Below are positions 4,106 to 51,715 of a DNA stretch of 64,000 nt, piece by piece. Each line of letters starts with the position of its first letter. Position 1 is the stretch's first letter. The notes under the pieces were generated by a model. It saw nothing but the letters and a program-made list of their open reading frames with translations, searched no databases and was not told the DNA's origin. This DNA is from Cystobasidiomycetes sp. EMM_F5 (taxonomy: Eukaryota). The position numbers and the translations under genes are program-made. Location: assembly GCA_051047955.1 (NCBI GenBank), contig JBPGPT010000008.1:558001-622000 (forward strand), read 5' to 3'.

Positions 4106-5245
4106 ATGGCAGAACAATCTCCGACCGTGCTGGGTGTGCACCCTCGTGCAGATGATGACATGATTGACGCGGCCGACAGACCAAAACCGCCTGTCCGACA
4201 GCGTCAAACCTTCCAGGACAGCTGTCATGAAGAACCGGACGTTATCCTAGTGTACGTGCCATCGAAGTTTGCGACTTGCTCCACATTTGACGTTATCGTC
4301 ACTCCTTGAGCAGGTCTGACGATGGCGTTGAATTTCCGGCACACAAATCACAGTTGAGAGCGACATGCGATCTCTTTGCCGACATGTTTGAGCTGGCCCA
4401 GCGTGACAAAGGTGTCCCCGCCACTCAAATCACGGCCCTTCCTGAAATCCCTCTACTAGAGTCTGCACGCATTGCCGCATTGGTTCTTCCTCTCGCCTAC
4501 AGAAAGAGTCCTGCGAGCTTGTGCGAGCTGAGTGCTCCCATTCTGATGGGCTGTCTGAGGTTTGCCCATCGCCTCGGTATGCCATTGGTGGTAGATTGCA
4601 TAGAAAGCTATCTCATTTCGTTATAGTACATAGACTCGCTAAGGCACGACATGATCCAGACTGACGCCATATTTGCCAGCACATCGACCACATCCAGATT
4701 CTCTTATTGGCATGAAGACGTGTATGTAATGGCATGTCAGCTTGAACAAAACCGGTTGCGGCAAGCAATGCTACCGCAAATGGTCTGTAAATATAGCCTG
4801 ATGCAAGCGTTTGATCTATTGGATGAGCTCGGCGACTCATCATATGTCAGACCACTGGTGAGTTTGCAGTATGATCATATTTCGATTATCTGATAGGTTG
4901 CCTACTCAGCACGATGCGAAAGCAAGAGCCGTTATCGAATTTCAGTATATTCTTGATGGTTCTCTGGAAGAAGGTCCCTTCAATAACTCTCTTGCGTGTG
5001 ATTGCCCATCCGCAGACCAAAATTGCGATTTCAAGGATGAATTGATCGCAATCTACTACAACATTTACAGCTATTGCAGAGGCGAAGCAGAATCCACATA
5101 CAAAATGACGGAAGCTCTTCAAAAGGTATCTAAGGGAATCACTAAAATGAAACATAGCTGCGATCACTGGGAGAAACTCGATTCTAGCATCCAGAAGATG
5201 ATCCCTTTATGGGACCGAATGGTGGTGAATCCCTCCTACGTGTGA
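4106..5245 (+). CDS. BTB/POZ domain protein, copy 1 (4 exons)
   Basis: DVILV|SDDGVEFPAHKSQLRATCDLFADMF...PEIPLLESA matches the fungal BTB signature (S.DGV.F.VHK..L...S..F.DMF). GT-AG introns join ORFs 4106, 4306, 4651 and 4871. Confidence 0.8.
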
Positions 5246-17400: not shown

Positions 17401-18131
17401 CTATGCGCAAGAAGAATGTAGGATGGCGAGAGCAGCAAGAAGAGGAATGGGTACAGCGACTCCTAAAAGCAGACAGACCAAAGTCACACAAGAGGAAGAA
17501 GAGTGTCACATCGCCAGTCGCAACGTCAAAGACAAGGCATCGCAAGTCACCGTCGACAGACGCGAAATCGAGGATGCGACACACAAATTTGCTTGCTGGC
17601 CTGCAGGAAATGTCTCTAACGCCGCCACCACCGCGTTCACCCCAGGCAGCTAAAGTCGTAAATTGCCCTCCCTCGGAGCGTACTCGGGATCCAGTGCAGA
17701 TCCCATGGGCTGTTCTGAAACCCTCCCAACGCATGCCATCCGAGTGCGGACAGGCCTCCTCCTCAGCAGCGGCAATCTGCTGGGTGACTGTTCCAAGAAG
17801 AGTCGATGTAGTCGGCCGCCTCCCGATATGCGGGCGTCTTCATTCGTTGTCCGCACTGATGACAGGAGCGGGTTACAGATCCACATTGGACACATCTGCG
17901 GCTATCGTAGGCGGCCCTGACGAAGTGAAAATACAGTATCGCACAGCTGTCATTCTAACGAGCCGACAAGCCTCGCTGGATGTACTCCAGATACTACGGA
18001 CGAGCTGGAGCCGGCAAGTGGCCGATTCGTCGACTGTGATGCTGGTACATGTGGACACTCTGTTGGCATCGGTGGACAATTTAAGTCAATTGAACGCGAT
18101 TCCAGATGAGTGTATCATAGCGCGTCTGTAG
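14466..18131 (+). CDS. ATP-dependent DNA ligase (divergent, ligase IV-like core; no clear BRCT repeats)
   Basis: N-terminal DNA-binding-domain-like region (FRLIFPEDDIRRRYGLQE). Nucleotidyltransferase motifs I ETKYDGERMQIH, III ILEAEMV, IIIa IVFFDCLY, IV EGLMIK (spliced), V WIKLKRDY, VI LRFPRV. Confidence 0.88.
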
Positions 18132-36264: not shown

Positions 36265-37175
36265 CTAGATGTAGCGCTGCTCCTGGAGATATCTCACCAT
36301 CTGCTGCACTCCCTCGTCAATCGTCGTCGAGTCCGTCTTGATGTGCAGCTCCGGAGACTCGGGAGCCTCGTATGGTGCAGATATCCCAGTGAAGTCTGTG
36401 CAGAGCCTCAAGCGCATCAGCGTCTCTGTCGCCTTGTTTGTCCTGACGCTCAGATCCGACCCACCCTTGATCTCCCCCGCTCTGGCCTTTTTGTACAGTC
36501 CCTTTGGATCCCGCTTCTCCACGCTCTCTAGGCTAGCGTCCACGAATACTTCGATGAAAGGTAGTCCAGCCTCTACGTGTAACTTCCTCGCCAAATCTCG
36601 GTCGGCCTTGTATGGCGATATGAAGGCGGTAATGGCGATCGTGGACGACGATGCAAACAGCTTGGACACTTCGCCTATCCGTCGGATATTCTCCACTCTA
36701 TCAGCAGGCGAGAATCCGAGATCCTTGTTCAAGCCAAACCGGATATTGTCGCCGTCTAGACGGAACGCTCGCTTGCCCAGTTGGAGGATGGCAGATTCGA
36801 GCGCGACGCCGAGCGTAGATTTGCCAGAGGCTGGGAAACGATGAGGGGCAACTGTTAGTGAGTGCGTATGCTTCGCCTGCTGTAAACGCCCACCGCTCAG
36901 CCCCGTCAGCCATACGGTTGCGCCCTGCTGGCCAGTCAAGTTTGTCCGGTCTTCATGGGTGACGGTGGAAGCGCTGCGAATGGCGTATAGTCATGATCCA
37001 GGCATATGTAGGAAGCAGAGTGATTGCAGAGTATCGCAGCCCATTGCAGAGTCGTAAATGTCGACAGAGATGCAGCGGATGATCGAGAATTTTATCATTC
37101 CAAAGTCAGCATTGCGATACAGGATACCGCATGCTAAGGCTGATGGACGTACTGCCAGGTGATGTTTGTTGCCAT
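36265..37175 (-). CDS. MET14: Adenylyl-sulfate (APS) kinase
   Basis: MATNITW|HAS, VWLTGLS|ASGKST P-loop, [56 protein letters not shown]. Confidence 0.96.
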
Positions 37176-44112: not shown

Positions 44113-44256
44113 CAATGGCAGAGGTTACTTTCCCTTCTTTCTTGGTGTAAGCGCGACACTCGCACTGTCACTGCCGTGTTCTTCGCTGCAATCGATAATA
44201 TAGCAACAATCGGTCTCCTCTTCTACTGCGCCGCTAGTGGAACATCACTGTCGTAA

Positions 44257-46213
44257 TCAGATTCGCACGTCCGCCGCTGCAAACAGCTTGAATGTTCTTG
44301 ACCACTCGCCTGTTGCGAGGAACTTGCCATCTGTAGAATAATTTCATTTCAGCGCTTAATAATATGCGTACACGGCGTAGACTTACTCTGGCTAAGATCT
44401 AAGCTCATGACGCGTCCGCCCGCGTCGGAGTTGATACTCTTGACGAGTTGCCAGTCGTCGGCTGACCACAGTTTGACATTGCCGTCATACCCTGACGAAG
44501 CAAGGTACATGCCTGACAACGGGACAGGTGTTGTCGTACTACTTCGCGCGCCCCATTCTGCTGAAGGTGTGGAAGCTTCCATCGCTTCGTCGACGGCCAT
44601 TGCAGCTGCAATAGGGTCTGGTTTGCTTTCCTCCTCGCCATCCGCATCTTCCTTCTTGATGCCATTGATACCGTTTGTCTGAGGTACAGTTTTCGCAGGT
44701 GCGATGGTAGTAGGAAAGTTCTTTAGGCCCTCTTCAGCTTTGAAGAAGCGGACATCCGACACTGTACTCCTGTGCGCATGAATGGTGTATAGGCATTTTA
44801 TCATTCTCAGATCCCAGATCTTGACTGTGTCGTCGTTCGACCCGCTTGCTAGTTGATAGCCTGTACCAGGTGACCAGTCCAACGCGAGTATATCCCGAAT
44901 ATGCCCGTCGAGGACCATCACTGACCGGCCCGACCGAACATCCCAGACTCGACCTATCGCATCCAATCCACCTGAAGCGATCAGTGATCCTTCTTCGGGC
45001 TGGAAGGCCACAGTGTAGACTTCTTTGCTATGCCCTTCTTGTAATAACAGCTCCTTGCCGGCATTGACGTCCCACATTCGCCATGTTCCGTCATATGAAG
45101 CAGACGCTAAATACCTGCCAGAGGGGTGGAAAGACATTTTGCACACCCGATGATTGTGTCCGGAAAGTGTACCGATAGGTCTGGACGGCTTTTTTACGGC
45201 CGGATCTGCATCTAGTCTGGAAATATCAAAGATGGTATTCGCCTTCAAATGAGGTCTATGACTCGATGCATACAGAGGGTTCACTTACCCCGCTAGATTC
45301 CAGAGTTGTATGTTGAAATCGGCTCCACTGGTCGCGAGATTGAGGGCTTCTCTGCTTTGACCAACAGTAGCACGCGGATGCCACAAGACAGCTCCCAATC
45401 GTTCTCCATTATGCCCTTTCAGCTCTTCCAGCTGTCTGCAGCCCGGTACGTCCCATAACTTGGCTGTTCCACTCCAAGACGCTGTAGCTAGCATGCTAGA
45501 ATCCGGAGAGAACCGCACCGAGCATATTGGACGGTCGTCGGCAAATTGTGATCCGAGTGTAGTATATGTCTGCGAAACAATACAAGGCGTATGATGAGGG
45601 TCGAGTCAGGGCAGGACAGCGATTCGCGCTTTCCTACCTTTAATTCCGCAAACACGGCTTTCCGCGTGTCCATTATCCTCGCTAACGGCAAGTTTGCTTC
45701 TTTCCTCTGCCTTTCCACTCTCCGTTTCGCTCGGGGTAGAGAGTATGAAGCGATGTACCTCCTTGCTTGTTCGAGTGATGCTGTCCCTTCCGTGTAAAAC
45801 TCCTCTTCCTTTTCCTCCTCGGACGAGTCGTCATCATCGTCGTCACTGCTTCCCATCTCCCCATCCAGACCAGCTGCCGTACGCTGTTTGAATATAATTT
45901 GCCGTAATCGCTCTCTCCGGTCTTCACGCTTTTCTCCAAACAAACATATCGGCTCGCCCGCTTTCCGCAGCGCTCGCTTGACGTCGAGATCATTTGTCGG
46001 TAGAGCCAACTTTCGTGAGGCGGATTTGCGGTCTAGTTCAGCCAGCAGGCCAGCTGCTGAGGGGTCCTCGCCGATAGCATCATATGTCACGCCAGATGTC
46101 CCGACGAGGTCATCAAAGTCAATGCCCTGCGTTTGCGACGACGCACAGAGAGGAGCATATCATCAGCACAGGTCTGTAATTACTGTTCGGGTTTGAATGC
46201 GCACATCTGCCAT
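44257..46213 (-). CDS. PRP4: U4/U6 snRNP WD40 protein Prp4 (PRPF4)
   Basis: PRP4/SFM domain [52 protein letters not shown], and WD repeats ([48 protein letters not shown]). Confidence 0.94.
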
Positions 46214-50086: not shown

Positions 50087-51715
50087 TCAACCAGAGGAAG
50101 CGGGAGCGGCCGATCCAGCCTTCTGAGGACCATTCTTGATGAATGCAACGCCCTTTGAAATGTTGCTCTTGAGTTCGGGCAGGCATGCATCGATGAGCTT
50201 CTGCTCGGACGCATCGAGTTTGCCGACTGGGTGGATCTTTTCTACACCATTCTTGCCGAGCTCGATCTGAGAGCTGAAGAACTCGACGCCCTCGTACAAG
50301 TCGGAAGCGACGAAGGAGGGTGTGGTCTAGGAGAAGGACACCGGTAGATCAGTTGTCGAATACCCTTCAGAGGTGTTGTGAGTATGATTTGCTTACCAAG
50401 CCAGACTCGCCGTTGAGAGCTCGGAGGAGCGAGTCAGTGAAGACGGCACCTACAGACGGCACGCTTAGCCGGAAAAGACGAATGCACAACGCGCTGTCTT
50501 CTACATACCAGCATAAGCCATGGAGAGAGTAGCAGAACCAGCACCGTCCTTTGCCTTTACAACCTCATCACCACCAAACTGGATACGCTTTACGAGATCT
50601 GCGACCTTTTGGCCACCCTCAGAAAGGATGGAAGCAGCGTCCTTCTGTTGGGAGAGGAGCGGTACAATAGTGACACCGGAGTGACCACCAACGACGGTGA
50701 CGTTGACGTCCTTGGGGTCCTTGCCAGATAGGCCGGAAACGAAAGCCGAAGCACGAACAACGTCGAGGGTGGTTACACCAAACAGACGCTTGGGGTCGTA
50801 GACGCCTGCATTCTTGAATACCTCGGCGCAAATGGGAACGGTTGAGTTGACTGGGTTGGCAATGATGGCCAGGAATGCCTTTGGGCAGTGCTTGGCGCAA
50901 GCCTCGGCCAGATCGCGGACGATGGAGGCGTTGGTCTGGACAGTGAGCAGATTAAGTGACGGGTAGTACAGGCGATGTGAAATGTGCGCACGTTGAATAA
51001 ATCGTCACGGGTCATGCCTGGCTTGCGGGGAACACCAGCTGGGATGACGACAATTTCGGCACCTTCGAGGGTTTTTTTCAGACCATCATTGTCTGGCAGG
51101 AAGCCTTCGACCTTGGCGGGAGTGCTGAGGGAAAGCAAATTGAGCTCGTCGTTTCGCGGTGTCTATTCGATTCTGCTCACTTGATGTGGGAGACATCTGC
51201 GGCGACACCGGGCGAGCCTATCGAAAGTCCGAATGAACGGGCATCAGCGGGAACACGACGAATGACCACCATTCTTCCACACCTCGGATATCGTAGCACG
51301 TCAAGTGCGATACGAGTGGATTTTGCTGCAGCGGTCAAGGGAAGTCCGTCAAAGTCAGGAGCACGAAGCGCGGAAATCGAGACGACACACCTTGAGCAGC
51401 ATTGATAAGGGTTGACCGATTCCACCAGCGCTTCCTGTGTAGTCAATAAGTCAGTACACCGTCTGGGGCTTCAATGATTTCTGTTACAATTACCTGGGAG
51501 CGTGAATTTGAGCGGGGTGGTCGCAGGTCAGTCTTTGAAAGCGGGAAAAGCGACTAGGTCATTGATTACCTAGCACGGCGACTGTGGATAGTACATGTCA
51601 GTATTCACTCAAGTCCTCCCTGCCCTGCTATGAACCCACCCTTTGTATTTGATCTCGCCGAGGTCGCAAAACCGCGGGCGATGTGCGATTTGAGCATGGT
51701 AATTCTGGCGAGCAT
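50087..51715 (-). CDS. MDH1: Mitochondrial malate dehydrogenase (intron-rich)
   Basis: Presequence [102 protein letters not shown]. Confidence 0.97.

Follow-up and report, generated by a model that had tools for sequence, protein, structure and literature searches.

Two abutting introns around a putative zero-length exon in a malate dehydrogenase gene from a yeast of the Pucciniomycotina

In a Pucciniomycotina yeast, the malate dehydrogenase gene carries an intervening sequence of 135 nt that appears to consist of two complete, abutting U2-type introns around a zero-length exon, and that on balance would most often be removed in two steps. The whole of the 135 nt leaves the mRNA. The anatomy of the sequence, the non-randomness of its internal signals and the absence of any retained base at the junction are established, whereas the order and number of the splicing reactions are inferred.

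The gene lies on the minus strand of the analysed stretch of DNA (64 kb, hereafter the window), where nine exons, when joined, give an open frame of 1065 nt coding for 354 residues. The intervening sequences measure, in 5' to 3' order, 58, 135, 65, 65, 56, 56, 59 and 70 nt, so that all but the 135-nt one fall between 56 and 70 nt. The exons and the first intron are the following:

51715-51640, minus strand: exon 1, with the ATG at 51715, coding for a basic N-terminal leader and covered by a spliced contig of run X1 (record 7)
51639-51582, minus strand: intron 1, 58 nt, GTGGGT..TACTGAC..CACAG, missing from the spliced X1 contig
51581-51570, minus strand: exon 2, a micro-exon of 12 nt, TCGCCGTGCTAG, coding for VAVL and the first base of a Gly codon
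51434-51391, minus strand: exon 3, beginning GAAGCGCTGG, which completes the Gly codon and codes for the NAD-binding glycine motif
51325-51283, minus strand: exon 4
51217-51181, minus strand: exon 5
51124-50992, minus strand: exon 6
50935-50509, minus strand: exon 7
50449-50397, minus strand: exon 8
50326-50087, minus strand: exon 9, with the stop codon at 50089-50087

When the large exons are used singly as queries, they match the Pfam domains Ldh_1_N (PF00056) and Ldh_1_C (PF02866) as well as solved mitochondrial and glyoxysomal malate dehydrogenases (E ~1e-49), and the joined frame contains the N-terminal GxGxxG motif; on these domains and this motif the predicted product is an NAD-dependent malate dehydrogenase of the mitochondrial/glyoxysomal type, in which the leader coded by exon 1 would be a mitochondrial presequence. 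Among named organisms, the 142-residue exon comes closest to a Cyphobasidiales metagenome-assembled genome, with 87% identity, followed by Mixia osmundae with 78%, which assigns the window to a yeast of the Pucciniomycotina and not to an ascomycete. An alternative start within intron 1 or within the first part of the compound, which would give a leaderless form, was rejected, the ATGs found there running into stops or lying in the wrong frame. Three intron units are packed inside 205 nt at the 5' end of the gene (the 58-nt intron 1 and then the 135-nt compound, with the micro-exon between them), a stretch in which the more distant relatives show a single intron at most.

The compound can be divided into two units, each of which holds a full set of splice signals:

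51569-51435, minus strand: compound intervening sequence, 135 nt, splitting at CAG|GTAATT between 51494 and 51493
51569-51494, minus strand: unit A, 76 nt, made up of the donor GTAATC, 31 nt, the branch motif ACTGAC (51532-51527), 28 nt and the acceptor CCCAG
51494|51493, minus strand: putative zero-length exon, where the internal 3' splice site abuts the internal 5' splice site (CAG|GTAATT)
51493-51435, minus strand: unit B, 59 nt, made up of the donor GTAATT, 32 nt, the branch motif ACTGAC (51455-51450), 10 nt and the acceptor CACAG

These positions and letters, with the division into 76 and 59 nt and the two sets of donors, branch motifs and acceptors, had been given in a preliminary description of the DNA and agree with it throughout. 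The branch A, as placed by the match to ACTGAC rather than by branch mapping, lies 34 nt from the 3' end in unit A and 16 nt from it in unit B, and in both units alike the first AG downstream of ACTGAC is the unit's own end. The distance of 34 nt belongs to the upper tail of the local introns described below, being reached or exceeded in 6 of 47. Thus what characterizes a zero-nucleotide exon at the sequence level is found here, namely a YAG|GT abutment, a branch motif serving the internal acceptor and no base of the junction in the mRNA. The interrupted splice signal that defines a stwintron is lacking: the donor of A, the acceptor of B and the two ACTGAC motifs are all intact, the units lying end to end and not one within the other. 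The predicted RNA structure over the 135 nt is nothing special (-25.4 kcal/mol, z -1.34), 22 of 200 shuffled sequences folding as well.

That nothing is kept between the two units is supported by homologous proteins and by a spliced contig. Nine full-length homologues could be aligned over the junction with no gap, all of them reading VAVLGxxGGIGQP. Among 80 metagenome loci, 66 hold GGIGQ; 61 of these have the motif uninterrupted and equally spaced, the other five have an intron within it, and extra residues occur in none (ten KAVV-type rows of this count, missed by the search pattern, were tallied by eye). In run X1, a contig of 247 nt with a depth of 6.1 skips the introns at 51390-51326 and 51282-51218 exactly, and spliced contigs also skip 50991-50936 exactly. 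In the X1 contig exactly 20 letters separate the end of exon 1 from position 51426, namely the 12-nt micro-exon, unchanged, and eight letters in place of 51434-51427; it therefore joins the micro-exon straight to exon 3, with no base kept between the units. Over exon 1 together with the leader, just 3 of 120 letters depart from the window, so that the contig comes from a very close relative. The predicted direct joining of the 12-nt exon to exon 3, with zero coding bases at CAG|GTAATT, is thereby confirmed, and with it the corresponding claim of the preliminary description, borne out by the ungapped homologues and by the close relative's contig alike. Run X1 has no cover on 51435-51611 and no piece on unit A or B, its contigs showing the final joined form without being able to show absence. 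In run X2 a depth of 2.3 is found in the 51494-51552 bin only.

Run X1 is labelled "DNA?", yet it contains contigs, from several organisms, in which four intervening sequences of the gene are precisely left out; because of this, the run behaves like a community RNA sample. At the start of exon 3, the first eight nucleotides (51434-51427) differ from the X1 contig at five positions, giving Gly-Ser-Ala here and Gly-Ala-Ala there, the latter being the state of most homologues, and the exon flanks of this stretch are 97-99% identical. The cluster of changes adjoins the acceptor of unit B and looks like two compensating small indels. Exon 3 of the close relative starts with GT, so that an AG|GT would result on the exon side too.

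For a local standard of comparison, introns were predicted in the window by a parser with strand masks, which gave 27 genes and 61 introns. Checked against the malate dehydrogenase gene, five of its six intron lengths agreed with the curated ones, while exons 1 and 2 and the 135-nt intron were missed; in the final sample (n = 62) the parser's six calls in this gene are replaced by seven curated introns. Four earlier intron samples had been dropped: one in which 382 introns were chained as one gene, one with merged genes and wrong strands, one of 14 introns from open reading frame bridging and one of 20, mostly false, from a flank filter. In the final sample the median length is 65 nt (range 45-146 nt), with at least 130 nt in only 3 of 62 introns, and 76 and 59 nt both fall within the bulk, in keeping with the earlier remark that each half is of typical intron size with its own donor, branch and acceptor. 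Scored with weight matrices, the signals of the compound are as follows:

51494 (end of A), minus strand: internal acceptor, 7.13 bits, 85th percentile of 62 introns
51532-51527, minus strand: branch motif of A, 7.40 bits, 48th percentile of 62 introns
51493 (start of B), minus strand: internal donor, 3.53 bits, 10th percentile of 62 introns
51569 (start of A), minus strand: outer donor, 3.00 bits, 10th percentile of 62 introns
51435 (end of B), minus strand: outer acceptor, 5.69 bits

The internal donor owes its weakness to the missing G at +5, which is lacking in the donors of both units and is found in 57 of 61 predicted donors, a statistic that leans towards this base as the sample is partly predicted by a crude parser that rewards it.

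Against chance, 40,000 random 135-mers with intron composition were scored. An AG|GT leaving at least 45 nt on each side was present in 3,259 of them, a YAG|GTR with an upstream CTRAY in 172, and all three observed scores (internal acceptor, branch, internal donor) were reached by a single one, with thresholds that were fixed after the case had been seen and matrices that derive from partly predicted introns. Nor does an internal AG|GT occur in any of the six other predicted introns of 102-146 nt in the window. Even allowing for the post hoc thresholds, the internal splice signals of the 135-nt sequence are not accidental.

Three routes would lead to the same mRNA. If unit A left first, the micro-exon would be joined to GTAATT, regenerating a 5' splice site (TAG|GTAATT) from which unit B would then be removed; this order is recursive splicing proper. 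If unit B left first, the acceptor of A would come to adjoin exon 3, and A would be removed afterwards. In the third route, the donor of A would be used with the branch and acceptor of B in a single step, possibly in parallel with the others. Since the three routes yield an identical mRNA, only intermediates or lariats discriminate between them. Removal would proceed mostly by two ordinary short-intron splicing reactions, and the recursive version through the zero-length exon is plausible.

The main competing explanation is that the compound is one ordinary intron of 135 nt, spliced in that single reaction, with internal sites that are fortuitous or are no longer used, being left over, for instance, from an insertion or from a time when there were two introns. 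This we consider possible although rather unlikely. A length of 135 nt can evidently be spliced at once, given that none of the six other predicted introns of at least 95 nt in the window (102-146 nt) has an internal AG|GT; the same count answers the suggestion, made in the preliminary description, to scan for double-length introns with an internal branch and YAG|GTRA, which in the window found no further case. Four of these long introns are:

17744-17878, plus strand: predicted intron, 135 nt, without internal AG|GT (parser)
36831-36963, minus strand: predicted intron, 133 nt, without internal AG|GT (parser)
44226-44371, minus strand: predicted intron, 146 nt, without internal AG|GT (parser)
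4577-4697, plus strand: predicted intron, 121 nt, without internal AG|GT (parser)

Some of them may conceal skipped micro-exons. One-step removal is also favoured by the weakness of the internal donor. Among the contigs of runs X1, X2, X5 and X6 there is none with only A or only B removed, which, contigs being unable to show rare forms, counts for neither side. Fortuitous sites, however, are made very unlikely by the single success among 40,000 random sequences. Moreover, the internal donor is at least the equal of the outer one, which the gene cannot do without, and the internal acceptor outscores its outer counterpart (7.13 versus 5.69 bits), so that a spliceosome that pairs sites across short introns (intron definition) would have no reason to skip the internal sites and should handle A and B as separate introns. 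It counts in favour of the two-intron reading, too, that either unit, if kept, would bring an early stop. Two-step removal is supported, in addition, by precedent in short-intron fungi, comparable internal pairs being used in Cryptococcus neoformans and Schizosaccharomyces pombe according to the available text of the reports cited below.

A further suggestion, that the double layout serves as a control point at which slow or incomplete removal produces early-stop transcripts that are degraded, tuning the level of the enzyme, we regard as improbable. The donors of both units are indeed weak, and retention of A, B or both is predicted to end translation early, after VAVLGNQ or VAVLGNCNRNH, that is, with a stop 2 or 6 codons past the Gly codon if A or B is kept. 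Any retained intron of a coding region acts alike, however, so that the layout is not needed for the effect, and the gene codes for a housekeeping enzyme.

As to how the compound arose, a direct repeat of 7 nt flanks unit A:

51571-51565, minus strand: AGGTAAT, copy 1, the last 2 nt of the micro-exon and the first 5 nt of A
51495-51489, minus strand: AGGTAAT, copy 2, spanning the junction of the units (last 2 nt of A, first 5 nt of B) in register with copy 1

The longest equivalent at 55 predicted introns is 5 nt. GTAAT donors are found in none of the 62 introns of the sample, only 13 of 1,891 pairs of donors are identical from -2 to +5, and a T at +5 occurs in 2 of 61 predicted donors. Where the G at +5 is missing, AA at +3 and +4 may have to make up for it. 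Since AG|GT is fixed by function and the AA is perhaps needed as well, the repeat is weaker than it appears, and what is truly shared may be one rare T at +5. Published routes of intron gain include, in the portions of the source that were available, insertion into AGGT with duplication and repair of staggered breaks leaving short direct repeats (PMC3443670). The flanking direct repeat that supplies a splice site in introner-like elements is present around A in the form of AGGTAAT, part of which is forced by the splice consensus.

The repeat hints at an origin by insertion, the likely one here, although this is held less firmly than the anatomy. Some 69 nt would have entered an existing intron at its 5' junction with duplication of AG|GTAAT, which would have cloned the unusual donor, created the abutment and so explained the rare T at +5 in both donors. 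In this specific form, with unit A as a recent arrival placed exactly at an older intron's 5' splice junction, from which it copied 7 nt and with them the unusual donor, the proposal is speculative and stands well short of even chances. Other copies of A, B or intron 1 were absent from the window, where the best other matches of A and B were 12-15 nt long. A recent tandem duplication between A and B was rejected, as their global alignment is no better than that of shuffled sequences (116 of 500 reach it).

An alignment of orthologous malate dehydrogenase introns, which had also been suggested, found no intron at the exact position of the compound in more distant relatives, as represented by the metagenome loci, five of which (L003, L006, L008, L020 and L028) stop short of the N-terminal exons. 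An exact 17-nt search of a collection of prokaryote genomes gave five bacterial matches, all due to chance. The nearest introns lie 9 nt downstream, as a single intron in the same phase, in L004 (3095-3293), L005 (90-196), L014 and L021, or 1 nt away, in phase 2, in L009 (about 336-472); most metagenome malate dehydrogenase loci have no intron near this point. In fungal malate dehydrogenase genes from metagenomes, introns thus seem to occur repeatedly in the DNA that codes for the glycine motif.

The preliminary description had proposed a different origin, in which the junction is the remnant of a micro-exon that once separated two introns and shrank to zero length. A 12-nt micro-exon does sit directly upstream, and the intron that some relatives have 9 nt downstream in the same phase makes two introns with a 9-nt exon conceivable, but these 9 nt fall downstream of B and not between A and B. 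With extra residues here in no homologue and the relatives' nearby introns at other positions, the idea of an eroded micro-exon is without support; shrinkage to zero would, moreover, have altered a glycine motif of fixed spacing, and we hold this origin to be very improbable.

If the insertion proposal were true, a splice junction already in use could still serve as a proto-splice site, fungi with short introns would acquire their zero-length exons when introns are gained more than once at the same point, and the sequence itself would display how a recursive splice site comes into being; the 7-nt repeat is in any case a testable clue to how abutting sites arise. For annotation, the warning is that double-length introns of intron-rich yeasts may hide two splicing events. 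Malate dehydrogenase is highly expressed in most cells, so splicing intermediates should be easy to seek.

The layout has precedents, which are compared here as far as the available text of the sources goes. The first descriptions of zero-nucleotide exons concern long introns of animals (10.1101/006163). As at the ratchet points of Drosophila and vertebrates, the juxtaposed acceptor and donor would provide a new 5' splice site once the first step is complete (10.1101/006163, PMC5126111); ratchet points, however, lie in introns of many kilobases and have a strong donor of the GTAAGT type, whereas here the intron is of 135 nt and the donor is GTAATT. With the stwintrons of filamentous fungi and Lipomyces the compound has in common that it is built of two U2 introns in a fungus (PMC6616335, PMC7138796). 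In a stwintron, by contrast, the inner intron is lodged within a splice signal of the outer one, which can therefore be removed only afterwards, while abutting units could leave in either order or in one step. Stwintrons are thought to arise through new splice sites or donor duplication (PMC6616335, PMC7138796), and their authors count abutting U2 introns as a recognised class apart from the nested ones (PMC6616335). Compound introns can be removed in one or two steps, the one-step alternative having been seen in L. starkeyi (PMC7138796).

In fungi, recursive splicing through zero-nucleotide exons has already been published, so that the mechanism is not new there. The preliminary description was right that stwintrons are nested; its other statement, that recursive sites are known mainly from long animal introns, overlooked the cases of C. 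neoformans and S. pombe. In the full-text literature that was searched, with supplements that may list more, the fungal zero-length exons were BOT1 of C. neoformans and two cases in S. pombe, and for recursive splicing in Pucciniomycotina and other basidiomycetes the term was absent from the best 12 of 6,309 matching papers. One of the two S. pombe cases is the intron of 336 nt in SPNCRNA.445 (10.1101/226894), in which, as here, a 3' splice site adjoins a 5' splice site within a fungal intron that is fully removed; SPNCRNA.445 is a non-coding snoRNA host whose case is conserved across Schizosaccharomyces and rests on experiment, whereas the present one lies in the coding region of an enzyme and has been read from the sequence.

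The closest likeness is to BOT1 of C. neoformans (CNAG_07884), in which spliceosome profiling identified an intron of 375 nt, composed of 210 and 165 nt around a zero-nucleotide exon, as spliced recursively (10.1101/224170). Both are found in a basidiomycete yeast with short introns, and in both a seemingly single intron is made of two around a zero-nucleotide pivot of which the mRNA keeps nothing. BOT1 is backed by junction, branch and 3'-end data, whereas the malate dehydrogenase case is known from its letters, and at 375 nt the BOT1 intron is longer than the norm of its genome, unlike the 135-nt compound, whose halves are of normal intron size. The malate dehydrogenase compound would thus be a well-formed, putative and unusually short case of a known layout: if verified, it would be far shorter than the published fungal cases (336-375 nt), and the normal size of both halves would argue that the cell treats them as two ordinary introns and not as the splitting of an overlong one.
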